Source: a bacterium
GTDB lineage: Bacteria > Patescibacteriota > Minisyncoccia > Phycocordibacterales > UBA9973
DNA: 64,000 nt
Assembly: GCA_037143195.1 (NCBI GenBank)
Contig: JBAWZD010000001.1
Span: forward strand, 272,892 to 336,891
Direction: 5' to 3'
In this document: one piece after another, positions 5,964 through 38,545 of the stretch
How positions within the stretch are numbered: position 1 is the first letter of the stretch
How the letters are laid out: each line of letters begins with the position of its first letter
Notes under the pieces: generated by a model
The model's database searches: none
Told to the model about the DNA's origin: nothing
Seen by the model: the letters and a program-made list of their open reading frames with translations, nothing else
Translations under genes and position numbers: made by a program

Positions 5964-6012
5964 AAAATCCCCCAACAATTGTTGGAGGATTTTACTTTTG
6001 AGCTTAGTATTT

Positions 6013-6799: not shown

Positions 6800-7179
6800 T
6801 GACTGGAGATTTCTCAATCACCAACAGAACAAACGGCAAGCTTCCACGCTTGCCGTTTGAGCAGGTAAAGGACGCAATACTTGGACCAAAGTATTCTCTT
6901 TCGGTTGCGCTCGTCACTCCCAAAGAATCGCACAAACTCAATCTCACTTATCGCCAAAAAGACAAGCCAACGAACGTGCTCTCGTTTCCATTCGGAAAAA
7001 ATTCTGGTGAACTTGTCCTCGATCTCAAAACATCACGCGCTGATGCGGTGAATTTTGACATGACGCCGGACAATTTTTTGCTTTTTCTCGTTATCCACGG
7101 AATGCTTCATTTGAAAGGTTACGACCATGGTAGTACAATGGAGAAAGCGGAAAAGAAATTTTTGAAAAAGTTCTTGTAA
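6799..7179 (+). CDS. ybeY: rRNA maturation endoribonuclease YbeY
   Basis: 126 aa, conserved HGxLHLxGYDH zinc-binding motif (HGMLHLKGYDH). Confidence 0.85.
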   Translation: MTGDFSITNRTNGKLPRLPFEQVKDAILGPKYSLSVALVTPKESHKLNLTYRQKDKPTNVLSFPFGKNSGELVLDLKTSRADAVNFDMTPDNFLLFLVIHGMLHLKGYDHGSTMEKAEKKFLKKFL

Positions 7180-7186
7180 TTTTTTC

Positions 7187-8374: not shown

Positions 8375-8421
8375 AAAAATACCCAACCTTGAAGGCTGGG
8401 CTTTTAAATGTGAACAATGTT

Positions 8422-8646
8422 TTAGATTTTATGCATCGCATGAGCGATCGCATAAGCAATGGAACAAGTTGCGATAAGTGCACCGACCAAAAATTTTCTC
8501 CACCAGATTCTTGTTCTTTTTTTGTTTTCAATGATACCCGCCTCGTCGATCGGGATTTCAATCGGGTACACAAGGCTTAGCCTCTGTGCTAACTCAAGAG
8601 CCTCCTTTGTAGGCTGATACCCTACTTTCTTTTTTTTAGAAAACAT
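8422..8646 (-). CDS. Hypothetical small protein with C-terminal TM helix (antisense to the ftsA-ftsZ spacer)
   Basis: 74-aa ORF with a hydrophobic C-terminus inside the 426-bp ftsA-ftsZ intergenic region; weak support. Confidence 0.25.
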   Translation of the reverse strand: MFSKKKKVGYQPTKEALELAQRLSLVYPIEIPIDEAGIIENKKRTRIWWRKFLVGALIATCSIAYAIAHAMHKI

Positions 8647-8800
8647 AAATTTATTTTTAATGCGTTCAATTATTACCTAAACTCTACGCCAATTACAAAC
8701 CCTGTCAATAGCAAAACAGGTGCGTTTACACCCATTTCTTTTTTTAGAATATCTGATAGAATGACGCAGGTTCGTTACTAGCTTTTAGCCCTATTATTCT

Positions 8801-10036: not shown

Positions 10037-10068
10037 GCAGAATTTGACTCACTTGGTATAATCTACCT

Positions 10069-10998
10069 ATGTACGATCTTCTCATCATCGGTGGTGGCCC
10101 CGCAGCAAGTGCCGCAGCAGTCTACGCCGCTCGCAAGCGCCTCAAAACAGTGCTCGTCGCTGGCGAATTTGGCGGACAGTCAACAGTCTCAACAGATATT
10201 CAAAATTGGATTGGTACTCCGCATATTAGTGGTGCTGATCTCGCAAAAAGTTTGAAAGCTCACGTGTATGAATATGCGGGAGATTTTCTTACTATCAAAG
10301 AGGGTGGCTACGTGACGAAGATTGAAGGTGTCGCGGGTAATTTTTCTATCACGATTGGTGAGAAAGACGTAGTGAAAGCTCACGCAATCCTCGTCGCGAC
10401 GGGATCAAATCGTCGCAAGCTCGATATCAAAGGTGCAGATGAGTATGAACACAAAGGTCTCACGTATTGTGCATCGTGTGATGGACCACTCTTTGCAGGT
10501 CAAGAAGTTGTCGTCATCGGTGGAGGTAATGCTGCGTTTGAGACTGCAGCGCAATTGCTCGCGTACTGTAGCAAAGTCACGCTCTTGAATCGCAGCGACA
10601 AATTCCGTGCTGATGAGATAACGGTCACACAGACACAAAAAGATCCAAAATTCCGCGCAGTAACTGAAGTCGAAATGCTCGAAGTATTCGGCGGAGATTT
10701 TGTCGAGGGCATGACAATCAGACACAAAAAAGATAGTACCGAAGAAAAAATTCCGGCCTCAGGAATTTTCGTCGAAGTTGGCCAAATTCCAAACTCAAGT
10801 TTCGTCAAAGGCATTGTCGACATGAACGATGTTGGCTCGATCAAAATTGATCCACGCACGCAAGCAACTTCAGTTGAAGGCATTTGGTCTGCCGGTGACG
10901 TCACTGATGTCCTCTACCACCAAAACAATATAGCTGCTGGAGACGCTGTTCGAGCACTCGAAGATATCTATATCTGGCTCCATAAGCACAAGGCATAG
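10069..10998 (+). CDS. trxB: Thioredoxin-disulfide reductase
   Basis: FAD motif GGGPAA, redox-active CASCDG, second Rossmann GGGNAA; 309 aa. Confidence 0.9.
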   Translation: MYDLLIIGGGPAASAAAVYAARKRLKTVLVAGEFGGQSTVSTDIQNWIGTPHISGADLAKSLKAHVYEYAGDFLTIKEGGYVTKIEGVAGNFSITIGEKDVVKAHAILVATGSNRRKLDIKGADEYEHKGLTYCASCDGPLFAGQEVVVIGGGNAAFETAAQLLAYCSKVTLLNRSDKFRADEITVTQTQKDPKFRAVTEVEMLEVFGGDFVEGMTIRHKKDSTEEKIPASGIFVEVGQIPNSSFVKGIVDMNDVGSIKIDPRTQATSVEGIWSAGDVTDVLYHQNNIAAGDAVRALEDIYIWLHKHKA

Positions 10999-10999
10999 A

Positions 11000-11120
11000 C
11001 GCGGGCACGCAAAATACTCCCTTCAAAAGCATCTTCGGAGCGCGACGGCGCGAGAATAAGGCGAAAATCCTTCAGGATTTTACGCCGGTGCTTTTGAAGG
11101 GAGTATTTTGCGTGCCCGCG
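11000..11120. repeat. Perfect 32-bp inverted repeat with a 57-nt structured spacer, occupying the whole convergent intergenic region
   Basis: 11000-11031 is the exact reverse complement of 11089-11120; the spacer contains a nested hairpin (ggcgaaaatcct...aggattttacgcc) and a cgcgacggcgcg palindrome. Confidence 0.8.
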
Positions 11121-11121
11121 G

Positions 11122-11862
11122 TTAGAGTTTGTGCAAAAGATCTAAGTGTTCTTTCGTGTTCACACCTATCGCTTCCTTCGGATCAATTGAAATCGATGCG
11201 ATATCGGCGCCTTCGGCGCATGCCATGCCGATGAGATCGGTGAGATAGTATTCGCCTTGCGCGTTTTCGTTTTTGAGTGCTTTGAGATGCGCCCAGAGCC
11301 ACTGTGCTTTGAACGAATACGAGCCTGAATTCACTTCGGTGATTCGGAGCTCATCTGGTGTGGCATCTTTTTTTTCTACAATTTTTGTGATGTCGCCATT
11401 CTCATTGCGAATGATGCGACCAAAATCCGCAAACCCTGCGCGCCATTCTTCGAAGTCGGGCACATGCACGGTCGCCATGGTGAGCACGGCATCAGAATTT
11501 TCTGCCATTTCGGCGAGCATATGGATCGAGTGCGGTTTGATATACGGTACGTCGCTATTGAGCACGAGCACATTTTTGACTTTGCCTTCGAGTTCAGGCA
11601 TAGCTGAAAGCACTGCATGTCCTGTGCCGAGCTGTTCGAGCTGAGCGACATAGCGATACCCATCGCCAAGCGTCTCCATGACGAGCTCACGCTTCTGACC
11701 CACGACCACAATGGGTGTCCTCGTCACACCTGAAGCCTCCACAGCCTCGAGGACGTGCAGTACGAGTGGTTTGCCATGAAGTGGCACGAGCACCTTGGGC
11801 AAGTCGCTCTGCATGCGTTTGCCATATCCGGCGGCGAGAATGACGACTTCGGTTTGTTGCAT
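11122..11862 (-). CDS. Sugar-phosphate nucleotidyltransferase (GlmU N-terminal-domain-like, no acetyltransferase domain)
   Basis: LAAGYGKRM...LPKVL...GTGHAV motif set of GlmU/RmlA-type NTP-transferases; 246 aa with no left-handed beta-helix domain. Confidence 0.75.
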   Translation of the reverse strand: MQQTEVVILAAGYGKRMQSDLPKVLVPLHGKPLVLHVLEAVEASGVTRTPIVVVGQKRELVMETLGDGYRYVAQLEQLGTGHAVLSAMPELEGKVKNVLVLNSDVPYIKPHSIHMLAEMAENSDAVLTMATVHVPDFEEWRAGFADFGRIIRNENGDITKIVEKKDATPDELRITEVNSGSYSFKAQWLWAHLKALKNENAQGEYYLTDLIGMACAEGADIASISIDPKEAIGVNTKEHLDLLHKL

Positions 11863-14116: not shown

Positions 14117-14190
14117 GTGACTCTACCGGGAATCGAACCCGGATTACAGCCTTGAAAAGGCCGTGTCCTAACCGTTAGACGATAGAGCCA
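14117..14190 (-). tRNA. tRNA-Glu (anticodon UUC)
   Basis: Reverse complement folds as a cloverleaf: acceptor TGGCTCT/AGAGTCA, D-arm TCTAACGGTTAGGACA, anticodon loop TTTTCAA, T-arm GGTTCGATTCC; no encoded CCA. Confidence 0.8.
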
Positions 14191-14248
14191 TACGAACAAA
14201 ATACCGTGCCACTATAACAGTATTTTGTCCTTTTTTCAAGAGGGCGAT

Positions 14249-15250
14249 TTAAGCCTTGTTTTTCAACATCCGATCGACACTATACTTCCCTGCTCCCGTG
14301 ACGACGAGCATTGAGATCGCCCCAAAGAGCGTGACGTGTGAATACACTGACTCTTTGAAGTAGAAGAACGAGAGCGAAATCACGACGAACGACACGATAG
14401 CGACGAGACGAATCTCAAATCCGATAATGAGTAATACACCGAGTAAAAATTCCACAATCCCCGCTCCGAGTACCCACAATGCGGGCGAAACTGGAATGAC
14501 ATTCGTAAGATGATACATTTGCACAACGAGTGCTGAATCGTGCGGATTCATAAATTTTTCATATACAGCGAGGAATATGAACGCAATACCAAGCCCGAAG
14601 CGGAGCACGAGCGGAACGAGCTCGCGAGCCTTTTCACCAAGTGAGAATTGTGTGATGTTCAAGATATCGTCGAGCCCTGGTCGTGCTGATTCGAGCAATA
14701 GCGCAGACACAACGAGTGCGAGAAAATCCATATTACCGAACACATAATTTGAGTGCACAACGCCAGCAAAGAAAAGTGCAATGCTTCCAACGTAGGCAAA
14801 CGGAAGCAAAAATCCGAGCAAAAACAAGAACCCGAGGATGATTTCGATGAATCCGATCATTGGTGTGCCCATGAGCACCGGTGAGACGAACACATTCGCC
14901 GTGCCCGCGCCGATCAGTGCAATACCGAGCGAGAGACGCGCCATCCATGAAAGGAGCTCCGTGTACGATGAGAGCTTTTCGATCACTCGTGCGAGCAATA
15001 CTTTGGATCGTGGTCGTGTGCGCCAATAGATGATGGCTCCGACCACGGCGAGCGTGACGAGCCCTGCGATGAGGACTGAAAGTGGAGCATCAGTGACTCC
15101 GGAAATCAAAAAATGCATGTCCGAGCCTTCATGACTTACGAAATCATCATGGTCGAGGACATAGCCGACGTGTGCACTTGCGAGGAGCGGCGTAGCCGCG
15201 ACGACGATACTTGAGACGAACCCGAGCAATACCCGTTTGATATTTTTCAT
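14249..15250 (-). CDS. Hypothetical polytopic membrane protein
   Basis: 333 aa, signal-like N-terminus and 8 or more hydrophobic helices; no catalytic motif recognised. Confidence 0.55.
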   Translation of the reverse strand: MKNIKRVLLGFVSSIVVAATPLLASAHVGYVLDHDDFVSHEGSDMHFLISGVTDAPLSVLIAGLVTLAVVGAIIYWRTRPRSKVLLARVIEKLSSYTELLSWMARLSLGIALIGAGTANVFVSPVLMGTPMIGFIEIILGFLFLLGFLLPFAYVGSIALFFAGVVHSNYVFGNMDFLALVVSALLLESARPGLDDILNITQFSLGEKARELVPLVLRFGLGIAFIFLAVYEKFMNPHDSALVVQMYHLTNVIPVSPALWVLGAGIVEFLLGVLLIIGFEIRLVAIVSFVVISLSFFYFKESVYSHVTLFGAISMLVVTGAGKYSVDRMLKNKA

Positions 15251-15322
15251 ATGGAAAGTATATCAAATTTGGTCTTAGAATGTAAAAATGATAGTATTGC
15301 CTTCGGGCATATTCAACCGTAG

Positions 15323-15412
15323 GGAGACGTGGCTGAGTGGTTGAAGGCACTTGTTTCGAAAACAAGCGTGCGGGAAACCGTACCGTGAGTTCGAATCTCA
15401 CCGTCTCCGCCA
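15323..15412 (+). tRNA. tRNA-Ser (anticodon CGA)
   Basis: Acceptor GGAGACG/CGTCTCC, long variable arm, anticodon loop TTCGAAA, T-arm GGTTCGAATCC, encoded CCA. Confidence 0.85.
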
Positions 15413-15460
15413 AAAAGAAAGCTTGAATTTAAGAGCAAATCTGCTATTCTATACAGGTTC

Positions 15461-15533
15461 GCGCGGTTAGCTCAGTTGGTAGAGCATCCCCTTGACGTGG
15501 GGAGGGTCAGAGGTTCGAATCCTCTATCGCGCA
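15461..15533 (+). tRNA. tRNA-Val (anticodon GAC)
   Basis: Acceptor GCGCGGT/ATCGCGC, D-arm AGCTCAGTTGGTAGAGC, anticodon loop TTGACGT, T-arm GGTTCGAATCC. Confidence 0.85.
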
Positions 15534-15587
15534 CAAAATTGGTATAAAAAAGAAGCTGGTTAGGCCTCTTAATAATTTTACAACCAT

Positions 15588-15914
15588 TTAATTGTTCAAA
15601 GAAAGATAGTTGCCTACTGCCATATTTAAATATGGTCCAGGATCTTCGGTTTGAAAATCAAATCTGATGCTTTGGTAGTACTTATTCGCAAAGGTACTGA
15701 TTTGCTCTCTTGTTTGCTCAAGAACTTTATCCTCAGATGGATCAAGATTCTTATTCAAAAAGGCTTCGGCTTTATCTTTGTCAGTCCAAACAAACAAACT
15801 TCGTGGGTAATCTAAGGTACCGTACGCTTGATCATTTGGTCCACCGATAATAAGAAATCCCACCTGAAGTGTCATTACTTTTTCTTTAGTATTTTGTATC
15901 TCCTCGTTGCCCAT
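15588..15914 (-). CDS. Hypothetical protein
   Basis: 108-aa ORF immediately downstream of the tRNA pair; no family recognised. Confidence 0.35.
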   Translation of the reverse strand: MGNEEIQNTKEKVMTLQVGFLIIGGPNDQAYGTLDYPRSLFVWTDKDKAEAFLNKNLDPSEDKVLEQTREQISTFANKYYQSIRFDFQTEDPGPYLNMAVGNYLSLNN

Positions 15915-16195
15915 GAGACTATTTTTAAAGATTCACAATATTATTATTGTATCATAAAATTATGATTTGTAAATAGTACCATCCGAAGTACGGTTAGTTC
16001 TCTTTAATTTCAACCCTAAGCCGCCAAAGACAAAGTTAAACGGGTATTTCGTCCATATTTTTGAGTTCGGGGTAAGAATTCTTCCCTCAAAATTTTATGT
16101 AGAAATGCTGGTTAGGTTTCTTTGAATTTTACGACGACTTGATTGTTAAAATTGAAAAGCCGCAGAAAATCTGAGACTTTTCTGCGGCTTAAAAT

Positions 16196-16696
16196 TTATT
16201 TTCTTTCTACAGCGAACCACGCTATCTCCAACATTTCTGCCGGACAGACCTTCCACGGCCCCTTTTTTACATCAGTGGTTCTTCCGTTCCAAAGTAACAC
16301 AATCGTTTCCTCCTCGCTAAAGGCGATGATGATTTTATAAATTGGAATCGCCTTATCCCTATGGATTGCAACCAGCCTCATTGTGTCGAGTCGTGATGCT
16401 GGTTTGAAACCACGGTCTGCTATTTCATTTGCAATGTAATCCGTTTTACATTGAATAAGTTCGATCATTTTAGGTTGATCGGTGTCAGTCTCGACACGGA
16501 ACTGAGATAAATTTGCCTTACCGTCGATTTTGAATGTCAAAGTTCTAACAAAATTCTCTGAACTCAATTTTGATGATATAATCGGCACATGGAAAATTTC
16601 GGATTCCCCCAGCCTAAAAGGGTAGAAATGTTTGCTATAGAGGACGAGGCGGACATCAATCAATTCAAAAACAAAAGTGCTGCATTGCAAGATCAA
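16196..16696 (-). CDS. Hypothetical protein (start uncertain; overlaps the facing ORF)
   Basis: 166-aa ORF; the 5' ~100 nt overlap the opposite-strand ORF, so the true start may be an internal Met (~16468). Confidence 0.3.
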   Translation of the reverse strand: MILQCSTFVFELIDVRLVLYSKHFYPFRLGESEIFHVPIISSKLSSENFVRTLTFKIDGKANLSQFRVETDTDQPKMIELIQCKTDYIANEIADRGFKPASRLDTMRLVAIHRDKAIPIYKIIIAFSEEETIVLLWNGRTTDVKKGPWKVCPAEMLEIAWFAVERK

Positions 16697-16948
16697 ATTG
16701 ACTCATATCTTGAATCACTCAAAGGTTTGATTGCTCAGCGAGACGAGTACCAAAGACTCCTCGAAGAAAATCCAAACGACACCTTTGTCCAAGGCGAGCT
16801 GAACGTGCTCCAAGTCAACATTGATTCAATCCATGACCAGATGAATGAACTTTCGGCGAAAAAAATGCAAGAAAATTTCAACGTAGAATCCTACAACGAA
16901 GTCAGTAAGGCGATAATGACTCATGTGCCAAAGGAATCATTAAACTAA
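16628..16948 (+). CDS. Hypothetical coiled-coil protein
   Basis: Internal ATG at 16628 preceded by AAAGGGTAGAA; predicted helical and acidic; followed by a strong terminator. Confidence 0.4.
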   Translation: MFAIEDEADINQFKNKSAALQDQIDSYLESLKGLIAQRDEYQRLLEENPNDTFVQGELNVLQVNIDSIHDQMNELSAKKMQENFNVESYNEVSKAIMTHVPKESLN

Positions 16949-16950
16949 AT

Positions 16951-16985
16951 TAAAAAAGCGTGGTCTTGATAACCACGCTTTTTTT
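16951..16985. terminator. Bidirectional rho-independent terminator
   Basis: aaaaaagcgtggtcttgataaccacgcttttttt: 8-bp GC-containing stem with A-run/T-run on both sides, between convergent ORFs. Confidence 0.8.
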
Positions 16986-17002
16986 AAAATCAATTTACAT
17001 AC

Positions 17003-17458
17003 TTACATGACTACAGATGAGTCAATCGGAAAAATTTCCGGTTGCAGTTGCCTTGTCAGGGCAAAAATCATCGTCCCTTTCCCTACGGAAAGGTTAAGGA
17101 CGGTGCTTTCGATATTCTTCACCTTTAAGTTAAGATAATTTTCGAAAACAATGATTTCATCAACCTTCCCATCAAAAGCAATTACAACGGGATTCTCGTC
17201 CAGCGTTTTATTTAACGCTTGAACACATGCGGTGGCGTCTTTAATGCCATTAACATACATGAAATGTGGATTTGCTTCTGCCACATCTAACGGAATAATA
17301 ACTGCACAACGAGACTCGCAGTTTGCCATAATAACAGGACTCTTTCCATCAACTTTGTACCCGAATGACATTGGGTCAGAATCTGCCGGTACGATAAATA
17401 CTTTTTTCAATTTGAACTTTTTAATTGTTAAACAAAATAGTCGCTTGGATACTATCAC
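17003..17458 (-). CDS. Hypothetical protein (probable later start)
   Basis: 151-aa ORF; the N-terminal 30 aa overlap a repeated promoter-region motif, so the start is probably the internal MSFGYK. Confidence 0.35.
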   Translation of the reverse strand: MIVSKRLFCLTIKKFKLKKVFIVPADSDPMSFGYKVDGKSPVIMANCESRCAVIIPLDVAEANPHFMYVNGIKDATACVQALNKTLDENPVVIAFDGKVDEIIVFENYLNLKVKNIESTVLNLSVGKGTMIFALTRQLQPEIFPIDSSVVM

Positions 17459-17780
17459 AAATGAACAAAAAAACTACTTGACATAGTTTTCCCCACGAGA
17501 TTATTCGCAGGTACGATATACTGTTTCAGGACCCTTCGTCGATTAAACAAAATAGTCATTTGGAACATTTTTCGGAGGGCCACTTCTTTTAAAACTTGAA
17601 TCACTACGAACTTGGCAACCGATTAACGGTTGCCATTTTTTATTTAAATCTCCTTCGAATATAGAAATTTTCAACCTTCAGCATACGGATTATGCTTCAG
17701 TCTTTTCTTTACGATTTTTTTGACATATCAAGGTATATATAGTATTAATAGCTCATAAATTCATCCTTTAAAGCTAAATT

Positions 17781-18095
17781 ATGAGTAACAGCATGCACGA
17801 AATGACTCAATTATTTTTTATGGCGGTTGCAGGAATATCTTTTTTTGATATGCTCATCCTCGGTCTTAAGACAGAAAGTACTATTGAACGAGGTATTTGC
17901 ACCATCATGGCCACTGTTTTCGGGTTGATCTGTCTAGAAATACTGCTGCGGATTATTATCATTCCCGACATCAGTGATTTTCCGATTATTCAGCTCGTTG
18001 TAGTATTGCTTGCGCGAATATCGGAATTGATTTTTGGGGCACTTGGTATTTTTTTCGGAATCAAACAATTGACCCAAAAAAGAGCAAACAAATAA
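17781..18095 (+). CDS. Hypothetical small membrane protein
   Basis: 104 aa, three hydrophobic helices; TTGACA-17-TATTAA promoter upstream. Confidence 0.4.
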   Translation: MSNSMHEMTQLFFMAVAGISFFDMLILGLKTESTIERGICTIMATVFGLICLEILLRIIIIPDISDFPIIQLVVVLLARISELIFGALGIFFGIKQLTQKRANK

Positions 18096-22139: not shown

Positions 22140-22279
22140 ATCTTAGCATCAAACCCCCAAAAAACCTTGTAAATAAGGGTTTATTGACAATTTTAATCTT
22201 CCGTGATTCTTTGACAAAATAGTATTTTCGTGATAGAATATATGTTAACCATTTTTTTAACAATTAAAAACAGAAAGAC

Positions 22280-25200
22280 GTGAAAAAATCACTACTTTTG
22301 ATGGTAGCGCTACTATGCTGCTGCCTTCTGTCCCCTCCCACTGCGAGCGGACAACTCACAACGATTCCGAGCTTCTCAGTAAGCCCGACGACAGTGTGCA
22401 TGTTCCAGCCGGTTCTGCCGGTGAACACCACTGTAACCGTAGCAGGTCATCGCTACGCCTATTACTGGAATTACGACTACGGTCGACCAACGAGTGACAA
22501 CACTCGCGACCCTCGTGGTCCAGTAATTTTTACGTACCCTGGAGCACCATATATTTCGATTATGGTGCACGACAGTGATGCGTACGGAGGTGCCGGGGGG
22601 GATTATTACTATCGGCAGAGCATCACGGTGCTCGATTTGCCGACAGCAACTATTGAAGCAACGCCGCGAAGTGCAGCGCTCAATTGTATTGCTGACAGTG
22701 TTATTTTGGTGGCAACACCATCTGACACTCTTGGCCACATTTTGTGGACTAGACCCACTGGGTTTACGGACACAAACGAAACAATTGCTGCTCGAACAAG
22801 CGGCAATTACCAAGTAATTGCCACCGACAGGCACGGTTGTTCTTCCAATTATCCGACATCAATTTGGGTAAACGGAGGAACACCAGTACATGTCGATCTG
22901 GCATTAGCCACCAGTTACGGTGGGATTATCAGCACAGACACAAGCGTCTCTGTCTGCTCGAGTGATGGACGCATTTTGCAACCAATTGTCAGTGGAGCCA
23001 TGTGGCCAATCACCTACAACTGGAACGACGGAAGTACAGCGAGCACTGACCCAATAGCCACTTCTGGCTACTATTGGGTTAAGCTCACAGATGCAAATGG
23101 ATGTATAGGTCGCGACACAATCCATGTGACGCGAAACATTACTCCGCCAAACACTATCACTCCAAGCACCTCAGCCACACTGTGTTCCGGTGATTCTCTG
23201 ATTCTCAGAGTCGCATCAGGATACAGCTATAGCTGGAGTACATGGAGTGGCGTAGTATCCACTTCAGATTCCGTAATTGTAACGAGTTCAAATTATTACT
23301 CAGTACAAATCAACGGATTGGGTGGCTGCAACGCCACGAACACCTACAACGCGAACTTCAATGCAGCGCCAACGCCCAGCATCGAAATATTCCCGAATGT
23401 AGGAGTGTCACATAGTGGACCAATCGACACAGTGCGTATATGCTCGAACGCAAGTTCAAGTATGTACGCAAGTAGTGCAGTGTATTCAACGACACTTCAC
23501 TATGTGTGGAACACTGGCGACACAACTGCCAATCTTCCTCTCCGCAGTGGAGGATTAAAGAGAGTAACGATAACAACAGCTGAAGGATGCAGCGCATCCA
23601 AAAGTATTTTTGTTGTTATGTACTCTGCACCTGATAGTAGCTATACATTAAGTAACCTTGGTCCATTATGCGACGGGACGACACAAGTTGTACGTCTTCG
23701 TCGCGCACCAGGAAACAGCTACACATGGAGTACTGGAGGTATTGCCGATTCGGCGATACTGACGAGTTCAGCAACCATCACCGCGGTTATAACCTCTGCA
23801 AGAGGTTGTATGAGTCCCGTGACGTACACAGCGGTGTTCAATGCAACACCGCACCCTGTCGTTTCGGCAGGACCATGCAGTATGGAAGCTGGAACGATCA
23901 CATCTGGCAACAGATATCAGTGGTCTACTCCAACGGGGATAATTCCCGGTGCAACAAGTGCATTTTATGGTGCAACAACTGGAGGTTTTTATTCCTACAA
24001 GGAAACAACTCCCTTAGGTTGTAACGCGACAGCCACAATGACCTACATTACCTGTGGTGGAACCACAGGTACAGGAACAAGTACTGATAGTGTACATGCG
24101 TACTTCGCAGAAGACGCAACACTGTCATGCGGTACAGGATATTTACGAGTGACGAATCTCTCGACGGCAATCTTGCCATCAAGGTTAAAGTATTTCTGGT
24201 CATTCGACGGTGGCACTCCTGCTACTTCAAATCTTCAGAATCCGCCACCGATTCTATTCAGCCCTGGATTACATTTCGTGAACCTTGTCGCTCGCGACAC
24301 CGTAAACGGAAGTACCAGTACGTATTTGGGATCGTTCATCGCAGACACCCTAAAAATCCGTGCGTATGGTTACGCACCCACAACAGGCCGGACAAGTTTC
24401 GACACACTTCCTGTTTGTCCAAACGACTCGGCTTGGGTTGGTGCATTAATCTACGCCGGAGCAGGCGTAAGTTATCAGTGGAACAACGGCGACAGTAGTG
24501 CACGTTTCGTGCCACACGCAAGTGGTATGTACTCAGTGCATGTTACTGACAACCGCGGTTGTTCAGCTGATGATAGTGTGTATTTAAGCGTAAGCAATTT
24601 TCCTGACAGTAGTATTACGAGATCATCACTTAGTAATATATGTGCAGGAGACACATTACGGCTTTCGCTCCACACTGGTAATAGTTACCAGTGGAACACG
24701 TACGACACTACGAGTAGTATCGGAGTCACAACTCCTGGATATTATTCAGTACGTATCATGAACAGGTTTGGTTGTGTTTCGCATGCAAATGCAAACATAA
24801 CGTTTAACCCAAAACCAATTCCAAGCGTCACCGTTTCGGGTGCACGATTTAGTTATGGAATTTTTGACACCGCACATGTTTGTGCAAACGCCAATCCTTC
24901 CATCTCAATCGCGCCATCGGGGATGACGTATCATTGGAACACGGGAAGTTCGTTCTCGAATTTTCCTCTCACAGTTAACGGTGTTTACACTGCGACAGTG
25001 ACGAATTCATACGGCTGTAAAGCCGCAAGTAATCCTGTGTATGTAAACATACACTCGTCGCCTGACAGCTTAATCACGGTAACAAGAGTAAGTGCATGCA
25101 TGGGCGACAGCATCTCTCTCGGACTTTCCCCTGGCAACTCATATAGTTGGAGCACAGGAGAAAGAAGTAACGGAATTAATGTTTTTACCTCTGGCACTTA

Positions 25201-26449
25201 TTCTGTAACGGTAACAACAGATGCTGGCTGTGTAAGTCATGCAACGAAGTCTGTAACGTTTAATCCACTTCCAAATGTAACAATCGGAATATCTCCGATG
25301 ACGCTGTATACATTTGGTGGCGGGACTGATACCGCTCATGCGTGTAGCAATACGCACGTGAACATATCAGCAACAACGGGGACTGGTAACACTTACCAAT
25401 GGAATAACGGAAGCACTTTTTCAAGCTTCCTCATTCCACTGAGTGGGTTGTATACGGTAACAGTGACGAATACGTATGCTTGCTCCGCTTCGGCGCAAGT
25501 GTACGTAAACATACACTCTGCTCCAGATAGCATCATCATGCCGTCGAAAGTAAGTGTTTGTAAAAATGACACACTGATTTTATGGTTGCCTTCCGGTAAC
25601 CATTATCTGTGGAATACAGGAAGCGATAACGATTCAATCATGGTGTTTGATAACGGAATTTTTTCCGCAACAGTTTCAAACATATATGGTTGTGAGTCTC
25701 ACACGCTACCATATACCGCTACCTTCCATTCGATACCAAAACCTGAAATTGCAGCATCCAGTTGTAATCTCAGTTTGTTATCGATAGCAAGCGGATCTAC
25801 GTATCAATGGTATGAAGGATCGAATCCAATCTGGATTAACGCCTCGTCATACATTGTTACGGCAAATGATTGGTACTCAGTCGAAGAAACAACAAGTGAA
25901 GGATGCAGAAATCGCTCGAATTCAATTTTCGATTCCGCATGTGTAATCCCCATTCCAATTGATTCGTGCAAGTCGTTCCCGATCCAGAGTCCAAGCATAG
26001 TTATAGACGTTACAAATTGCATGCTTGGATGCAGTAGTAAATATACGGTGGATTCCTTCGTCTGGACTCGCAGTGGCATATTCTTGCCCGCAACAGACAC
26101 ACCGTATATCAGTTCTTTTATAAACGGGCTCTATCAAGTCACCGTTTACGATACCCGTGGATGCAGTGCGACATCAGAATTAATTTCTGCTGGTTGTGTG
26201 CAAGACACAACTCATGCACCAATTAATTTTGATGTGTATCCAAATCCGTTCTCTCAACATGTGACAATCACATGCGATAGTACATTTTCTGTCCTCGTAT
26301 TTAATATGCTAGGACAAAAGGTCCTAGAGACCATGGAAAATAATGGTGTGACACTCCAAACAGGGCAATGGCGCCCTGACACATACTTCATTGTTGTCGG
26401 CAATCGCTTCGGCGTTGTCACAACAAAAAAAGTTGTGAAAACAAAATAA
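22280..26449 (+). CDS. Giant secreted repeat protein with T9SS (Por) C-terminal sorting domain
   Basis: GTG start after a TTGACA-17-TAGAAT promoter; signal peptide; about ten ~95-aa SprB/Ig-like repeats (C..D...L....G.SY.W.TG...GCxS); last ~75 aa match the por_Secre_tail pattern (VYPNPFS...GQKV...GQW.PDTYFIVV...KKVVK). Confidence 0.85.
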   Translation: MKKSLLLMVALLCCCLLSPPTASGQLTTIPSFSVSPTTVCMFQPVLPVNTTVTVAGHRYAYYWNYDYGRPTSDNTRDPRGPVIFTYPGAPYISIMVHDSDAYGGAGGDYYYRQSITVLDLPTATIEATPRSAALNCIADSVILVATPSDTLGHILWTRPTGFTDTNETIAARTSGNYQVIATDRHGCSSNYPTSIWVNGGTPVHVDLALATSYGGIISTDTSVSVCSSDGRILQPIVSGAMWPITYNWNDGSTASTDPIATSGYYWVKLTDANGCIGRDTIHVTRNITPPNTITPSTSATLCSGDSLILRVASGYSYSWSTWSGVVSTSDSVIVTSSNYYSVQINGLGGCNATNTYNANFNAAPTPSIEIFPNVGVSHSGPIDTVRICSNASSSMYASSAVYSTTLHYVWNTGDTTANLPLRSGGLKRVTITTAEGCSASKSIFVVMYSAPDSSYTLSNLGPLCDGTTQVVRLRRAPGNSYTWSTGGIADSAILTSSATITAVITSARGCMSPVTYTAVFNATPHPVVSAGPCSMEAGTITSGNRYQWSTPTGIIPGATSAFYGATTGGFYSYKETTPLGCNATATMTYITCGGTTGTGTSTDSVHAYFAEDATLSCGTGYLRVTNLSTAILPSRLKYFWSFDGGTPATSNLQNPPPILFSPGLHFVNLVARDTVNGSTSTYLGSFIADTLKIRAYGYAPTTGRTSFDTLPVCPNDSAWVGALIYAGAGVSYQWNNGDSSARFVPHASGMYSVHVTDNRGCSADDSVYLSVSNFPDSSITRSSLSNICAGDTLRLSLHTGNSYQWNTYDTTSSIGVTTPGYYSVRIMNRFGCVSHANANITFNPKPIPSVTVSGARFSYGIFDTAHVCANANPSISIAPSGMTYHWNTGSSFSNFPLTVNGVYTATVTNSYGCKAASNPVYVNIHSSPDSLITVTRVSACMGDSISLGLSPGNSYSWSTGERSNGINVFTSGTYSVTVTTDAGCVSHATKSVTFNPLPNVTIGISPMTLYTFGGGTDTAHACSNTHVNISATTGTGNTYQWNNGSTFSSFLIPLSGLYTVTVTNTYACSASAQVYVNIHSAPDSIIMPSKVSVCKNDTLILWLPSGNHYLWNTGSDNDSIMVFDNGIFSATVSNIYGCESHTLPYTATFHSIPKPEIAASSCNLSLLSIASGSTYQWYEGSNPIWINASSYIVTANDWYSVEETTSEGCRNRSNSIFDSACVIPIPIDSCKSFPIQSPSIVIDVTNCMLGCSSKYTVDSFVWTRSGIFLPATDTPYISSFINGLYQVTVYDTRGCSATSELISAGCVQDTTHAPINFDVYPNPFSQHVTITCDSTFSVLVFNMLGQKVLETMENNGVTLQTGQWRPDTYFIVVGNRFGVVTTKKVVKTK

Positions 26450-26467: not shown

Positions 26468-26550
26468 AAAAAAGCCCCGGCAATGTCGGGGCTTTTTCAT
26501 ATGTCAGGATCGTTTCAATACAAACAAAAAACCGCTTACGTACTACGTAA
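26468..26550. terminator. Pair of facing rho-independent terminators
   Basis: aaaaaagccccggcaatgtcggggcttttt (for the + gene) and ccgcttacgtactacgtaagcgg (for the - gene). Confidence 0.7.
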
Positions 26551-28687: not shown

Positions 28688-28760
28688 AACTCGTAATCGA
28701 AAATCGCAACAAAAAACCCACACAAAGCATGGGCTTTCTGTGGGTACATTTTTGATTTTA

Positions 28761-29453
28761 TTATTTTACTTCGACAAAATCCTCGTCGAAGATTTTCATG
28801 GCGGTTTGCCATGATCCTTGGTCAGCGTGCATGTACGCTAATGCGCGTAACACATTCGCACGATAGCCCGTAGCTACTTGCAGAACAGCGCAAATACGCT
28901 CGAATGGCACCTTCCCTTGCGACATCAGGCTCGCTGATTGCAATGAGGCTATAACCTTCTTGTTTTCGGACAGGTTCATTACGCAAGCGATTTGCTCGGT
29001 ACTTAGTTGCGAATGTCGACACGCGTCGATCGCACAGCTAAGTAATTGTGAATCCGAAATTGCCGGCATTGAGACGGCCATCGGAAGTGAAAACTTCGCC
29101 TCGCAACTTGCGAAAAATAAATCTTCTGCAATATTGATAGCTTCAATGTCAATTGTTGCGATTGCTAGGATCATGCAAATAGCCGTTTTATTTTCTTTCG
29201 TGTAGCGAATAAGCCACACAATTTCATCTAACGAAACTTTGGCTTTCGCCAATAATGCGGCTACTCTTAATGATGCTGTCACTCGATTTTTCGAACACGC
29301 ACTTTCAATTTTTCCTATTTCCCAGTTTTTTAATCCTGCCTGGAGACAGGATTCCCTCGCACACAAATACTGAGGGGTCTGCGCAATTGTTTGCGCTTCT
29401 TTGTTGCTGTTGATACCTTTTTTGCCTTTTCCTACTAAATTGTTTGAACGCAT
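28761..29453 (-). CDS. Hypothetical protein
   Basis: 230-aa ORF with RBS-like GGGGGAGCAGAACC upstream. Confidence 0.4.
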   Translation of the reverse strand: MRSNNLVGKGKKGINSNKEAQTIAQTPQYLCARESCLQAGLKNWEIGKIESACSKNRVTASLRVAALLAKAKVSLDEIVWLIRYTKENKTAICMILAIATIDIEAINIAEDLFFASCEAKFSLPMAVSMPAISDSQLLSCAIDACRHSQLSTEQIACVMNLSENKKVIASLQSASLMSQGKVPFERICAVLQVATGYRANVLRALAYMHADQGSWQTAMKIFDEDFVEVK

Positions 29454-29756
29454 GGTTCTGCTCCCCCGTTGGAGACTTTTAATTTAATCCGGGTTAAAAT
29501 CGGTCTTTCCCGCGTCAGCTTTCTTACGTAACTCATCTCCATGGCAGGCTGGCCATATATAGTATCGAGTTTTACTTTTGCGGAGAGGACTTGCGATTTC
29601 GCGTACCTAGGTAAGAGCGCGCGATGTACAGATGGTGCGCACCGTGCGCTCTTACTTAGGGTTGAATGTTGGTTTATGTTTTCAACGTATATTGCACATT
29701 GTCTATAGTTTACCATATATAGACACTAGTGTCAATTAGTGTTATGGTACAAAAAA

Positions 29757-30473
29757 TTAGATGATCGTCATCAAACTCGAAATGACCGGTGACATCGTTC
29801 CGGCTGTCCACAAGTATGGAGCTGTGCCCGTGAGATCGCGACCAGCAAGCTTGTAGAGCTGAACAGTAAGTGAATCACCGATGACCGCAGTCATAGCAAT
29901 ACTACTCTGCACGCTGAGTGTGACCGATCCCCCAGCTGGAACGAGAAGTCCACTTGATGTTGTGGCTGTGTAAATCAGTGGGTGATTTGGAATACCGGTA
30001 GATGTTGGAACAACAAGAATGGGATTACCGAACATACTTGTACCACTAAATACAGCAACCTTGTAAACATCGGTCGGCGTCGTGTCGTTCAAACCAAATT
30101 GCATGCGAAGAAGTGCGACTGGACACGCGGTTGGATTTGAAACAACAAACTGTCCAAGTGTTCCGGTACTGCCATGGGTAACATTACCAGAAAGGAATGT
30201 TGAATCTGCAGTAACAACGAGTGTCCCCGAACTTGCCGTTGGAGTAGTTGGACATGTCCAAGTCGAGCCAGCGACAGTCGTTCCTGTACCTGTTCCATAT
30301 CCCACTGCGCTTGTCGCTGCTGGAGAAACGCCGACACTTCCGGTATTTTGAAGTGCGTCTGTGTGCATACTTTTGTACACAAAAAATCCGGCGAGAATAC
30401 AAGCACCAACGACAACCAAAATTTTTACACCGTTATTTTCAGAATTTTTCCAAAAGGCAATAAGTGATTTCAT
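29757..30473 (-). CDS. Hypothetical Thr/Ser/Gly-rich surface protein with N-terminal anchor
   Basis: 238 aa, N-terminal TM/signal, low-complexity T/S/G-rich beta-type sequence. Confidence 0.45.
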   Translation of the reverse strand: MKSLIAFWKNSENNGVKILVVVGACILAGFFVYKSMHTDALQNTGSVGVSPAATSAVGYGTGTGTTVAGSTWTCPTTPTASSGTLVVTADSTFLSGNVTHGSTGTLGQFVVSNPTACPVALLRMQFGLNDTTPTDVYKVAVFSGTSMFGNPILVVPTSTGIPNHPLIYTATTSSGLLVPAGGSVTLSVQSSIAMTAVIGDSLTVQLYKLAGRDLTGTAPYLWTAGTMSPVISSLMTII

Positions 30474-30576
30474 GGTATTGTCTACGATTACTAATAGTTA
30501 TGAGACAATTATAAACTGTCTCACTCATGTTGCAAGGCAAAAACAAATACAAGGACTTTGTGAATATTTCAAAAAG

Positions 30577-33168: not shown

Positions 33169-33864
33169 ATGAAAAAAATTCTTGCTATCGGTGCACATCC
33201 AGATGATGTTGAGTTTGGCGTGAGCGGTCTCCTCATCAAAGAAATCAGTAACGGCGCACAAGTCAAAATTGTTGTGTGTTCGCTCGGTGAGGCAGGATCG
33301 AACGGAACTCCTTTGGGACGCAAGGCCGAAGCGGAATCTGCAGCCAAGCATATTGGTGCAGAATTTCAGTATGTCGACATGGGTGGCGATTGTCATATTG
33401 AAGACACTCCAGCCAATCGCAAAATCATTGCAGAAATTATTCGTACATGGAAGCCAGACATCGTGCTTGCGCCATCACTTACTGAGAACCAACATCCCGA
33501 CCATCTTGCTGTCGCTCACATCGCGCGCTCGGCGTCCCGCCTCGCGCGCTACGGCGGTCTCGAAGACCTCAAATCTCTCCCTGTCCACAGTATCGAAGCA
33601 CTCTACTACTATCCATCAAGTGCTGAATTCGACAAACGTCCTGATATCATCGTCGATGTCACAAACGAATATACAAAATGGACGGAGGCCATGAATCTCC
33701 ACGAGAGCCAAATGAAAACACGCGGATATATCAATCTCGTCACTAGCAAAGCAAAATATCTCGGCGCAACCGTTGGAGTAGATTATGCGATCGGTCTTTG
33801 GGTCAATGATTCAGTCATGGTAGACACGCTCGAAGCGCTTGGATCATCACGAAAATATAAATGA
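33169..33864 (+). CDS. bshB: PIG-L/LmbE family N-acetylglucosaminyl deacetylase (BshB-like)
   Basis: N-terminal AIGAHPDDVEFG zinc-binding motif and HPDH motif of LmbE-like deacetylases. Confidence 0.7.
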   Translation: MKKILAIGAHPDDVEFGVSGLLIKEISNGAQVKIVVCSLGEAGSNGTPLGRKAEAESAAKHIGAEFQYVDMGGDCHIEDTPANRKIIAEIIRTWKPDIVLAPSLTENQHPDHLAVAHIARSASRLARYGGLEDLKSLPVHSIEALYYYPSSAEFDKRPDIIVDVTNEYTKWTEAMNLHESQMKTRGYINLVTSKAKYLGATVGVDYAIGLWVNDSVMVDTLEALGSSRKYK

Positions 33865-35030
33865 ACCATACACAGCAAAAAAATACAAAAAAACATCTCG
33901 CCATAGGTATTGTGTGCTATCCATCAGTCGGTGGCTCAGGCATCGTTGCAACACAACTCGGCACTGAACTTGCGCGCCTCGGACACAAAGTGCATTTCAT
34001 TAGTTATGACGAACCGTTCAAACTCGATACGAACGAGCCGAATATTTCGTTCGACAAAGTAACCTTCAACGGATACGAGCTTTTTAAATATCCTGATTAC
34101 ACATTGCCCCTCGCGGTCAAAATGGTCGACGTCGCAAAGAAGTACAAACTCGATATTCTCCACGTACACTACGCCGTGCCTCATGCGACAGCAGCGCTCC
34201 TCGCCAAAAGTATCGCGAATGAAGAGAAACTTCCCTTTCCTCACGTCGTCACCACACTCCACGGCACAGACATCACGCTTCTTGGTCGAGACAAGACCGT
34301 CATGCCCGTCATCAAATATTCGATCGAAAGCTCATGTGGTGTGACAGCGGTTTCAGAGAGCCTGAGAAAAGACACGGTCAAAGTACTCAAAACAAAAAAA
34401 GAAATCCGAGTCATTCACAATTTTTACAATCCAAAAACACCAACACAATCTCGCGAATCAATTCGTGCGAGTATCGGCGTGCGTGACGACGAATTCCTTG
34501 CGATTCATCTTTCAAATCTTCGTCCCGTCAAACGTATTCCTGATTTGATTGATATTATCAAAAAAGTAAAAAAACATCCGCGCATCAAATTACTCATTCT
34601 CGCTGGTGGAGATTTTTCGGTCTTTGAGCCACTCGTCAAAAAATACGGACTCGAAAATCGCATCATCGTACTTCCTCGTGTGCTTGATATTGAAAATTAC
34701 ATCAATGCATCAGACATCGGCGTGTACACATCCGAAGAAGAAAGTTTCGGCATGGGCATTCTTGAAACTCTTTCCTATGGCAAACCCATCCTCGCCACAC
34801 GTGCGGGAGGTATCCCAGAGTTCATGAAGAACGGCAAAACAGGTTTCCTCTTTAAAATCAGCGACACGAGTGGTATGGCGCACAAACTCGCCGAACTCGC
34901 AAAGAATCCAGACCTTGTTGCGAAACTCGGCGAACATGCAAAAAACCTTGCACAATCAGAGTTTACTGCCGAGAAAAAAGTCCAAGAATACGTCGACTAC
35001 TACCGCACGATCATCGCCTCGGGAAAATAA
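33861..35030 (+). CDS. bshA: GT4 glycosyltransferase (BshA-like)
   Basis: N-terminal YPSVGGSGIVATQLGTELARLGHKVHFI characteristic of BshA-type GT4 enzymes; C-terminal GT-B E..G...EA motif; 4-nt overlap with bshB. Confidence 0.7.
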   Translation: MNHTQQKNTKKHLAIGIVCYPSVGGSGIVATQLGTELARLGHKVHFISYDEPFKLDTNEPNISFDKVTFNGYELFKYPDYTLPLAVKMVDVAKKYKLDILHVHYAVPHATAALLAKSIANEEKLPFPHVVTTLHGTDITLLGRDKTVMPVIKYSIESSCGVTAVSESLRKDTVKVLKTKKEIRVIHNFYNPKTPTQSRESIRASIGVRDDEFLAIHLSNLRPVKRIPDLIDIIKKVKKHPRIKLLILAGGDFSVFEPLVKKYGLENRIIVLPRVLDIENYINASDIGVYTSEEESFGMGILETLSYGKPILATRAGGIPEFMKNGKTGFLFKISDTSGMAHKLAELAKNPDLVAKLGEHAKNLAQSEFTAEKKVQEYVDYYRTIIASGK

Positions 35031-37027: not shown

Positions 37028-38545
37028 ATGGCAAAAACAAAAGATGATCAGGAAAAGATTGGTTTGTTTATCAAAAACCTCCGCGAAGAGCGAGGTCTCA
37101 CCCAAGCAGAATTCGCAAACGCACTCAATACCTCACAAAGCGCCGTTGCTCGCATGGAAAAAGGCGAACAAAATCTCACTGTCGCAAACCTCGCCAAAAT
37201 TAGCGAGCTCCTCGGTCGACAGATCCTCTCACTCTCAAAAAGTATGGATTTTGAAGTGACTGGTGGTCGTGAACTCAAAGGTAGTATCCGTACCAACTAT
37301 TCCAAAAACGGAGCGATCAACATGCTCTGTGCTTCCCTACTCAACAAAGGCAAAACAATTCTTCACGGAATTCCACGCATTGAAGAAGTATTTCGCTATA
37401 TCGAAATCATGGAGTCGCTCGGTGTCGCAGTACGCTGGATTGAAAAAGATACTCTCGAAATCATTCCACCAACGAAACTCACTTTTGATCGCATGAATCT
37501 CGAGTCTGCGCGCAAGACACGTTCATTCACATTCGTCGGAGCGCTCATTCACTGGCAGAAATCATTCTCATTCCCGCATTCTGGTGGATGCAAAATGGGC
37601 GAACGCACCATCGCCGCACACAAATACGGTCTCAGCAAATTTGGAGTGAATATTAAAACACTTACTGATAGTTACGATATCCGTTACAAGAAACTCAAAC
37701 CAGCAGAATTTGTACTCTACGAATCAAGTGACACGGGTGCTATTGGTATGCTCATTGCAGCCGCAGGGATTGCTGGCACTTCAATCATCCGCTTTGCTCC
37801 ACCGAACTACCAAGTTCAGGATGTGTGTTTCCTGATTGAAAAAATGGGAGTGAAGATTGAAGGCATTGGCACGACAACACTCACTGTGCACGGCCGCGAA
37901 AATATCAATGAAACGATCGAGCACTGGAACAGTGAAGATCCGATTGAATCAATGTTCTTCCTCTCAGCGGGAATCGTCACCAAGAGTTCGCTCACTGTCA
38001 CTCACTGCCCTATCGAATTCATCGAACTTGAAATCGAAAAGCTTCGCCAAATGGGAGTGAAGTTCAAGATGAGCAAGTCATACAAATCAAACAACGGACG
38101 CACCACGCTTCGTGATATTTCTGTCTCACCATCAAAGCTCATCGCTCCGCTTGAGAAATTGCACGCACAGCCATTCCCGGGAATGCAAAACGACAATCTT
38201 CCGTTCTTCGTACCAATCGCTACGCAAGCCAAAGGCACAACGCTCATTCATGACTGGACATGGGAAAATCGTGCGATCTACTTTACCGAACTCAACAAAC
38301 TTGGCGCGAATGTTCGTCTCGTTGATCCACATCGTGCATTCATCGAAGGACCAACGAAGCTCCGCGCAGCCCAAATCGTTTGCCCACCAGCACTTCGTCC
38401 ATCTGCGGTCATTTTGATTGCCATGCTCGCAGCCGAAGGCACATCGGTACTTCGCAATGTATATTCGATCACTCGTGGCTACGAAGAAATCGCCGAGCGT
38501 CTCAATGGTATTGGTGCACAGATTCGTGTCGTCAAAGGAATGTAA
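37028..38545 (+). CDS. murA: XRE-family HTH domain fused to UDP-N-acetylglucosamine 1-carboxyvinyltransferase
   Basis: aa 1-65 are a typical Cro/C1 HTH (LTQAEFANALNTSQSAVARMEKGEQNLTVANLAKISELLG); aa ~73-505 align end-to-end with MurA (FEVTGGRELKGSIR.., catalytic Cys loop SGGCKMGERTIAAH, C-terminal ITRGYEEIAERLNGIGAQIRVVKG); no stop codon between the two parts. Confidence 0.85.
   Translation: MAKTKDDQEKIGLFIKNLREERGLTQAEFANALNTSQSAVARMEKGEQNLTVANLAKISELLGRQILSLSKSMDFEVTGGRELKGSIRTNYSKNGAINMLCASLLNKGKTILHGIPRIEEVFRYIEIMESLGVAVRWIEKDTLEIIPPTKLTFDRMNLESARKTRSFTFVGALIHWQKSFSFPHSGGCKMGERTIAAHKYGLSKFGVNIKTLTDSYDIRYKKLKPAEFVLYESSDTGAIGMLIAAAGIAGTSIIRFAPPNYQVQDVCFLIEKMGVKIEGIGTTTLTVHGRENINETIEHWNSEDPIESMFFLSAGIVTKSSLTVTHCPIEFIELEIEKLRQMGVKFKMSKSYKSNNGRTTLRDISVSPSKLIAPLEKLHAQPFPGMQNDNLPFFVPIATQAKGTTLIHDWTWENRAIYFTELNKLGANVRLVDPHRAFIEGPTKLRAAQIVCPPALRPSAVILIAMLAAEGTSVLRNVYSITRGYEEIAERLNGIGAQIRVVKGM

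Follow-up and report, generated by a model that had tools for sequence, protein, structure and literature searches.

The 64-kb stretch of DNA analysed here (contig JBAWZD010000001.1, positions 272,892 to 336,891; hereafter the window) contains, at 22280-26449 on the plus strand, an open reading frame (ORF) for a 1389-residue repeat protein. It begins with a predicted Sec signal peptide, continues with two PKD-like modules and 14 Ig_7-like units (R01-R14), and ends, by profile, motifs and modelled fold, in a bona fide type-A C-terminal sorting domain (CTD) of type IX secretion systems (T9SS). The genome around it is that of a member of Patescibacteria (the candidate phyla radiation, CPR), which are described as monoderm (PMC11665869; PMC12102498). 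Every part of the protein, CTD included, is under purifying selection; the tail is maintained and is not decaying. The explanation that we favour, at slightly better than even confidence, is that the gene is of Bacteroidota origin and was acquired and domesticated in the Patescibacteria/CPR, where it would encode a Sec-exported fibrillar adhesin with a re-purposed CTD.

The C-terminal sorting domain and the genome that encodes it

An earlier reading of the window (the first-pass annotation) had proposed a T9SS sorting tail at the end of this protein, and both profile hidden Markov models (HMMs) for this domain bear it out. Residues 1310-1389 (26207..26446, plus strand), with the HMM match at residues 1319-1387 and hence at the extreme C-terminus, score 49.0 bits with TIGR04183 and 36.1 bits with PF18962, above the curated cut-offs of 23 and 27 bits, respectively. 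The motifs YPNP and LGQKV, Y1369 and the terminal KKVVKTK are all present. An alignment with 16 Bacteroidota CTDs revealed five invariant positions, P22/N23/P24, G46 and Y70, all of which are kept in the window protein; the sole deviation from the motifs is in G-x-Y, whose nearly invariant Gly is replaced by Asp. The AlphaFold2 model of the domain has seven strands and a predicted local distance difference test (pLDDT) score of 90.1. Its best match in the PDB is 8glk_D, the CTD of NucA in a T9SS complex, with a template modelling (TM) score of 0.68 when normalised by the query and 0.81 by the target and a root-mean-square deviation of 1.9 A, and it further matches the CTDs of mirolase (8qb1, TM scores of 0.71/0.72) and RemA (8gl6_D). 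The E-values of this fold search are modest (~1e-3), which is usual for a domain of small size. The HMMs, the motifs and the predicted fold agree with one another, and the first-pass description of a large, secreted, adhesin-type repeat protein with a genuine type-A CTD is thereby upheld.

The CTD had also been taken to place the genome among the lineages of the Fibrobacterota-Chlorobiota-Bacteroidota (FCB) superphylum. This placement is wrong, because the named relatives of DnaK and of YkuD all belong to the Patescibacteria/CPR. The DnaK of the window has many relatives at 80-98% identity, and every one that bears a taxon name is from this group (Ca. Pacebacteria, 88%; Ca. Paceibacterota, 84%; Nomurabacteria, 80-81%; 'Patescibacteria group', 80%). 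The YkuD transpeptidase encoded 0.8 kb downstream of the gene has its named relatives in Ca. Parcubacteria, Yonathbacteria and Kaiserbacteria. The NCBI taxonomy assigns the DnaK and YkuD relatives to Bacillati, phylum Minisyncoccota. We agree with the first-pass annotation that the genome otherwise looks reduced. To our knowledge, no T9SS is known in Patescibacteria. A Pfam scan of ~50 ORFs of the window returned no T9SS or outer-membrane component, and no other CTD or Ig_7 protein was found in the window or in the CPR loci L002, L009 and L010. The sequence read comprises 64 kb plus short flanks, of a contig of at least 451 kb.

The gene lies in the order VF530, target gene, 189-aa ORF, YkuD and C39 peptidase, and the same order is found in the Logan assembly SRR12676973 and in the ENA assemblies ERZ19028897 and ERZ19027918, which derive from different samples. 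In a further sample, a 44,990-bp ENA contig (ERZ19028522) encodes a 98%-identical DnaK and reaches 39 kb towards the gene; judging by its length, which equals that of the longest contig recorded for the orthologous protein, it appears to carry the gene as well as the CPR DnaK. In all, the gene sits in this CPR context in at least four assemblies, in one of them only apparently. The composition of the gene is typical of the window (GC z=-0.03; GC content at third codon positions z=-0.86; codon-usage distance rank 30 of 43).

Selection on the gene

The diverged ortholog (P0121) is 93% identical at the amino acid level and 90% at the nucleotide level, and its 1371 aligned residues contain zero gaps. 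Between the two alleles, the synonymous divergence (dS) is 0.355 and the ratio of nonsynonymous to synonymous divergence (dN/dS) is 0.105, with P=3e-87 against neutrality; all selection figures come from these two sequences only, which are 7% apart. The regional values of dN/dS are 0.12 for the signal peptide with the first PKD-like module, 0.10 for R01-R06, 0.12 for R07-R14 and 0.155 for the CTD, and the second PKD-like module is the most constrained part of the protein (0.013). Within the CTD, nonsynonymous changes number 7.5 out of 20, whereas 77% would be expected under neutrality (P=7.5e-5), and the five amino acid substitutions all spare the motif residues.

The first-pass annotation had expected length variation between strains. 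The gap-free alignment speaks against such repeat-number instability, and variation in the number of repeats is ruled out for this ortholog, the only diverged one available.

Repeat and module architecture

The mature part of the protein starts with an N-terminal PKD-like module (residues ~26-128; 22355..22663), presumably the distal tip of the fibre. It is followed by units R01-R06 (residues 129-595; 22664..24064), a Gly/Thr-rich linker with the second PKD-like module (residues 596-705; 24065..24394), and units R07-R14 (residues 706-1309; 24395..26206), all on the plus strand. The two PKD-like modules resemble each other by eye, and both remain below the Pfam cut-off of 23.5 bits, the first with 13.5 bits (PKD E=0.075) and the second with 16.4 bits (PKD E=0.009, PKD_4 E=0.032). 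Each of the 14 units contains one conserved Cys pair, and the spacing between first Cys residues is 68-90 aa. The unit signature reported in the first-pass annotation, C..D.L.L...GNSY.W.TG...G.Y.V.V...GC.S, is well founded, whereas its count of about ten repeats of ~95 aa is replaced by 14 shorter-spaced units and two PKD-like modules.

The same annotation had described two adjacent repeats as nearly identical and had taken them as a sign of recent intragenic duplication. The quoted segments, which lie in R09 and R11 with R10 between them, are identical at 31 of 50 residues (62%), and the most similar pair of whole units is ~52-55% identical and non-adjacent. Neither Tandem Repeats Finder nor a direct-repeat search found any long or tandem DNA repeat in the gene. 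Within R07-R12, an old super-repeat of two units is present three times (R07-08, R09-10 and R11-12), in copies which share 39-47% of their amino acids and 53% of their nucleotides and use the same codon at only 28 of 68 conserved residues. Moreover, the units are 37-54% identical to units of Bacteroidota proteins and 33-55% identical to each other; since they are as close to the Bacteroidota units as to one another, the array is old. Near-identical repeats and a recent duplication are therefore ruled out by the repeat searches, the unit identities and the codon comparison.

The units are not recognised by Pfam at its own thresholds. The whole protein gives no match to Ig_7 (PF19081) at E<=1, and a piecewise scan yields scores of 23.2, 18.7, 15.7 and 10.3 bits, all under the cut-off of 27.3 bits; among R01-R06, one sub-threshold Ig_7 match has E=8e-5. 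The SprB repeat (PF13573), a model that the first-pass annotation had named for these repeats, and the CHU_C type-B CTD (PF13585) gave no match even at E<=1. An AlphaFold2 model of two units (residues 858-1008; pLDDT 94.6) is all-beta, with two beta-sandwich domains. In a Foldseek search, its eight best matches in the PDB are Ig-like fragments of the GhpA stem (E 2e-7 to 1e-5, 20-25% identity).

Relatives and distribution

Beyond the protein's own 90% cluster, the best of 2273 matches are 24-31% identical, and among 5.8 billion proteins nothing fills the gap between 93% and 31% identity. The named distant matches are almost all from Bacteroidota (Flavobacteriales, Chitinophagales, Saprospiraceae and Bacteroidales), with Pfam labels of Ig_7, PKD, Por_Secre_tail or CHU_C. 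The 185,579 GTDB species representatives include no CPR relative and no close relative; they contain only 25-28% matches, in metagenome-assembled genomes (MAGs) labelled Bacteroidota (Chitinophagaceae, Bacteroidetes and Marivirga) and in one labelled Verrucomicrobia. In the two relatives examined, which retain the YkuD-C39 pair and have YkuD proteins 74% and 56% identical, the gene was not found upstream of the pair. The upstream genes are unrelated in both, so that no clean empty insertion site can be defined.

With an HMM built from the 14 window units, each of 31 homologs proved to contain 11-28 units, with independent E-values (i-E) down to ~1e-20. The reverse HMM, built from Bacteroidota units, recovers all 14 window units at i-E of 5e-22 to 1.5e-6, a range spanned by R07-R14, with R01-R06 at 3e-14 to 3e-7. 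The homologs P0079 (55.9 bits) and P0095 (66.3 bits) pass the Pfam cut-off for Ig_7. By these sequence comparisons, the window units belong to the same family as the units of Bacteroidota cargos, namely Ig_7.

Members of the Ig_7-unit family also occur in MAGs labelled as lineages outside the FCB superphylum. One locus (L007, PAVT01000020.1, 'MAG: Verrucomicrobia bacterium') encodes, at 4592-11671 and 14324-17962, a 19-unit protein and a separate CTD-bearing ORF close by, and another homolog (P0100) is labelled 'Acidobacteriota bacterium'. These could be mis-binned Bacteroidota contigs or more cases of the family outside the FCB lineages.

Gene boundaries, export and surface features

Re-derivation of the ORF returned exactly the earlier call (22280-26449, GTG start, 1389 aa). 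The sigma-70-type promoter reported upstream, TTGACA-17-TAGAAT at 22211..22239 on the plus strand, also withstands scrutiny: it agrees with the consensus at 11 of 12 positions, its spacer contains an extended -10 TG, and it keeps both hexamers in the orthologous locus (L002), where the -10 element is TAAAAT. The GTG is abutted by a purine-rich stretch, AGAAAGAC (22272..22279, plus strand), which we assign from its sequence as the putative ribosome-binding region; the ortholog has AAGGAC at this position. Conservation in the orthologous locus, which is 90% identical overall at the nucleotide level, covers the promoter, the purine-rich stretch, the GTG and the gene's first 60 nt. Downstream, an intrinsic terminator can be read directly from the sequence (26474..26497, plus strand): a GC-rich hairpin, GCCCCG and CGGGGC around a 7-nt loop, followed by TTTTT, begins 25 nt past the stop codon. 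It is absent from the list of the consensus scanner. An A-tract precedes the hairpin, so that bidirectional action is possible. With its own promoter and its own terminator, the gene is a self-contained, monocistronic transcription unit.

The same protein is deposited at NCBI as MEI8130151.1 ('MAG: T9SS type A sorting domain-containing protein [bacterium]', 1349 aa) on a 451,635-bp contig. That model begins at Met41 and thereby loses the signal peptide, and the gene caller used at ENA puts the start at Met8. We prefer the GTG at 22280 as the true start because of the conserved promoter, the purine-rich stretch and the complete signal peptide (window 22280-22402).

The Sec signal peptide, MKKSLLLMVALLCCCLLSPPTASG (residues 1-24; 22280..22351, plus strand), was recognised by inspection and hydropathy. 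It is the sole strongly hydrophobic stretch of the whole protein and is identical in the ortholog; its n-region is charged, its h-region comprises 14 residues, and positions -3/-1 read A-x-G. Cleavage would occur before a Gln. A Gln at +1 is also present in seven of the 13 homolog N-termini displayed, that is, in most of those starting with a signal peptide, and we take it as an instance of the 'Q-rule' of Bacteroidetes.

The sequon D-[ST]-[AILVMT], which presumably corresponds to the O-glycosylation sequon of Bacteroidota, occurs 26 times in the protein, compared with 6.2 +/- 2.3 times in shuffled sequence (z=8.5); part of this excess is due to the unit motifs 'C.GDS..L' and 'PDS.I'. Two observations touch on this excess. 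The Ig-like domains of GhpA are glycosylated on Ser/Thr residues, and a GT4 glycosyltransferase and a PIG-L deacetylase are encoded 7 kb downstream of the fibre gene (33169-35030).

Right beside the fibre gene lies a strain-variable islet. The segment from the C39 peptidase to an ABC transporter (28700-30500) differs from its counterpart in L002 (16400-21600), the strains being otherwise syntenic. The window has two ORFs (230 and 238 aa) with no Pfam match, and L002 and L003 have six other ORFs, one of which gives a weak dockerin match.

Discussion

The protein finds its nearest counterparts among the giant Ig_7/PKD T9SS cargos of Bacteroidota (such as P0006, P0022 and P0025), which are annotated as 'T9SS type A sorting domain-containing protein'. 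They have in common with it a signal peptide with Gln at +1, one or more PKD-type modules, tandem units of ~65-80 aa with the signature C..G.S..L...G..Y.W..G...G.Y.V.V...GC, and a type-A CTD. The window protein differs from them in sequence (24-31% identity), in length (1389 aa compared with typically 1500-2400 aa), in the number of units (14 compared with 11-28) and in the sub-threshold Ig_7 scores of its units. It is also encoded in a Patescibacteria genome, not in that of a T9SS-bearing diderm.

Among the systems compared, the only one with a matching solved structure is GhpA, the grappling hook of Aureispira sp. CCB-QB1 (PDB 9flp, 9fls, 9flu-9fly and 9g8b), which is likewise the only PDB entry found by sequence (phmmer E=5.5e-10, in five stretches). 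GhpA has the same overall plan, consisting of a signal peptide, an adhesin tip, an Ig-like stem and a T9SS CTD (bioRxiv 10.1101/2024.01.29.577165). It is far larger, with 5,898 aa, 52 repeats and a ~1,400-aa hook module, and it forms heptamers (bioRxiv 10.1101/2024.01.29.577165); the window protein has 1,389 aa, 14 units and a ~100-aa PKD-like tip instead of the hook module. Homologs of PorP and PorE, whose genes adjoin that of GhpA, anchor it in the outer membrane (bioRxiv 10.1101/2024.01.29.577165), and no PorP/PorE homologs are found among the neighbours of the window gene (VF530, the 189-aa ORF, YkuD and the C39 peptidase). Another large surface filament that has Ig-like repeats as well as a T9SS CTD is SprB of Flavobacterium johnsoniae (bioRxiv 10.1101/2024.01.29.577165), from which the window protein differs in lacking PF13573 and PF13585 matches and in its type-A CTD; the window contains no gliding machinery. 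From the side of the CPR, a cultured member of the Patescibacteria has essential surface proteins that are predicted adhesins (PMC11665869). The adhesins of Saccharibacteria epibionts are likewise large surface proteins in a reduced, host-dependent monoderm genome, which is a likeness in the kind of protein and of genome. We found no literature report of a CPR adhesin with a T9SS-type CTD, or of CPR linked to T9SS or Por_Secre_tail.

In our proposal, the protein leaves the cell through Sec, with cleavage at ASG|Q. Outside the cell it would fold into a rod of beads on a string, each unit braced by its conserved Cys pair; with 17 domains of ~3.5-4 nm each, the rod would measure ~55-65 nm, which is long for an ultrasmall cell. 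The PKD-like distal tip might then be used for attachment to a host cell or particle, as in the adhesins of cultured CPR epibionts. If the organism is monoderm and has no T9SS, the CTD cannot be an outer-membrane translocation signal in its producer and must have another role. It may have been kept for holding the fibre on the producer's envelope or for contributing to binding.

Several points weigh against this proposal. The adhesive function is suggested by the architecture of the sequence. With no donor above 31% identity, the direction and date of the transfer can be read only from the distribution of the family. The gene bears no compositional sign of foreign origin; recent horizontal transfer in the form of a compositional anomaly was looked for and not found, which is a weak test because a GC content of 46% is common in Bacteroidota too. 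That the producer has neither a T9SS nor an outer membrane rests on phylum-level knowledge, the part read being a 64-kb stretch within a contig that spans at least 451 kb. Finally, the protein has no LPXTG, no C-terminal transmembrane segment and no canonical lipobox. No mechanism of cell retention is visible in it, and the CTD is consequently the only candidate for retention or partner binding.

The protein could simply be released, as a Sec-exported binding protein that, for example, coats particles or binds polysaccharide, with the CTD as one more beta-sandwich module. We regard this as unlikely, while giving it real weight: no known anchoring motif of the monoderm type is present, and the fold neighbours of the two-unit model include glycan-binding surface proteins, one of them SGBP-B of B. 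ovatus. However, all close relatives in structure and sequence are cell-attached fibres or T9SS-anchored cargos, and the canonical CTD motifs are conserved. That the CTD substitutions avoid the motifs suggests a specific partner and not a generic spacer. If, as the first-pass annotation had it, the lineage were T9SS-bearing, the protein would be an ordinary cargo of a diderm, with SprA as its export route and an anchor on the outer membrane. The CTD is as canonical as such a reading would require, and the genome was read only within the window and its short flanks. Against this stand the marker genes, which are those of Patescibacteria/Minisyncoccota, described as monoderm (PMC11665869; PMC12102498), the ~50 ORFs with no T9SS or outer-membrane component, the lack of a second CTD or Ig_7 ORF in the window and in three CPR loci, and the papers searched, none of which links CPR to T9SS cargo. 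We consider an ordinary cargo very improbable. Scarcely credible, in our view, is an error of assembly or binning that joined a Bacteroidota fragment to CPR DNA. The family is overwhelmingly from Bacteroidota, and the similar proteins in MAGs labelled Verrucomicrobia or Acidobacteriota may be mis-binned; yet the gene is flanked on either side by CPR genes within a 451-kb contig, its junctions recur in the Logan assembly and, at ENA, in two or more assemblies of different samples, and the 44,990-bp contig appears from its length to carry the gene together with the CPR DnaK. In addition, the promoter and flanks are ~90% conserved at the nucleotide level, and the composition matches that of the neighbouring genes. 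A chimeric assembly is ruled out by the independent assemblies.

A decaying, functionless relic of a transfer would fit the restriction of the gene to one narrow lineage, but we give it next to no credence: neither variant has an indel or a break in the 4.2-kb frame, the departure from neutrality is strong, and the promoter and start codon are conserved. In another and more adventurous explanation, the exposed CTD would dock on surface-exposed T9SS components, such as the PorV shuttle or the PorU/PorZ attachment complex, of a T9SS-bearing (Bacteroidota) host on which the CPR bacterium lives, forming a non-covalent tether or even a PorU-catalysed linkage to a surface glycolipid of the host. The CTD motifs are intact and under purifying selection in a lineage where use as a secretion signal is not expected, and the CTD model superposes on a substrate CTD that was solved bound to a T9SS complex (8glk_D). 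The whole protein, with its Gln at +1, its excess of D-[ST]-[AILVMT] sequons and its Ig_7 units, resembles a Bacteroidota cargo, and CPR bacteria, which live as obligate epibionts, rely on adhesins (PMC11665869). On the other hand, no precedent is known in which a T9SS accepts a CTD that reaches it from outside the cell, and folding constraints could equally explain the conservation of the motifs in sequences only 7% apart. We therefore hold such mimicry to be quite improbable. In a weaker version of the idea, T9SS-type CTDs might have a second, T9SS-independent role in anchoring or binding that operates in monoderm envelopes. We return, then, to the acquired and domesticated adhesin as the explanation that we favour.

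Other features of the window

Several further genes of the window merit description. A leucyl-tRNA synthetase (40514-43240, plus strand) has a complete His_Phos_1 domain inserted at residues 454-617, and the same 908-aa architecture is found in an ENA ortholog (L012). A MurA-like protein of the EPSP_synthase family (37028-38545, plus strand) is fused to an N-terminal DNA-binding domain of the HTH_3 (Cro/C1) type. On the minus strand, a 1065-aa protein (46411-49608), probably exported, combines a right-handed beta-helix (NosD/Beta_helix) with a lipase domain of the LCAT/PGAP1 type and is conserved in the ENA relatives L011 and L012; it is a candidate for a host-membrane-attacking phospholipase of the kind proposed for CPR bacteria.

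The PIF1-family helicase (49813-51564, minus strand) is a single 583-aa ORF in the window. In the relatives with 98%-identical DnaK it is called as pairs of overlapping ORFs, of 197 and 396 aa (L011 11043-12793) and of 163 and 433 aa (L012 7311-9054), which could reflect a frameshift, a pseudogene or a sequencing error. At 14117-15534, the genes for tRNA-Glu-TTC (minus strand), tRNA-Ser-CGA (plus strand) and tRNA-Val-GAC (plus strand) flank a gene for a DoxX-family membrane protein.

Implications

The domain families described here were known before, and automatic annotation at NCBI had already given the protein its label. We found no report in the literature of a canonical T9SS-type cargo that has become fixed in a genome of the Patescibacteria and is maintained there by selection. 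T9SS CTDs are taken to be diagnostic of a lineage that bears a T9SS and an outer membrane, and such use in the present case led to the wrong phylum. For annotation, this means that a T9SS should not be deduced from the label 'T9SS type A sorting domain-containing protein', and that the deposited model starting at Met41 hides the signal peptide.

For the biology of the organism, three options arise: the CTD may have a function independent of a T9SS in its producer, a CPR lineage may possess an envelope and a secretion system so far unsuspected, or a host's machinery may be the target of the signal. In the last case, a counterfeit Bacteroidota cargo would fasten a CPR epibiont to its host, and mimicry of a secretion signal would be a determinant of host range. 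Few of the factors by which CPR bacteria attach to their hosts are known, and the gene described here is a concrete adhesin candidate whose probable Bacteroidota ancestry could point to the host.

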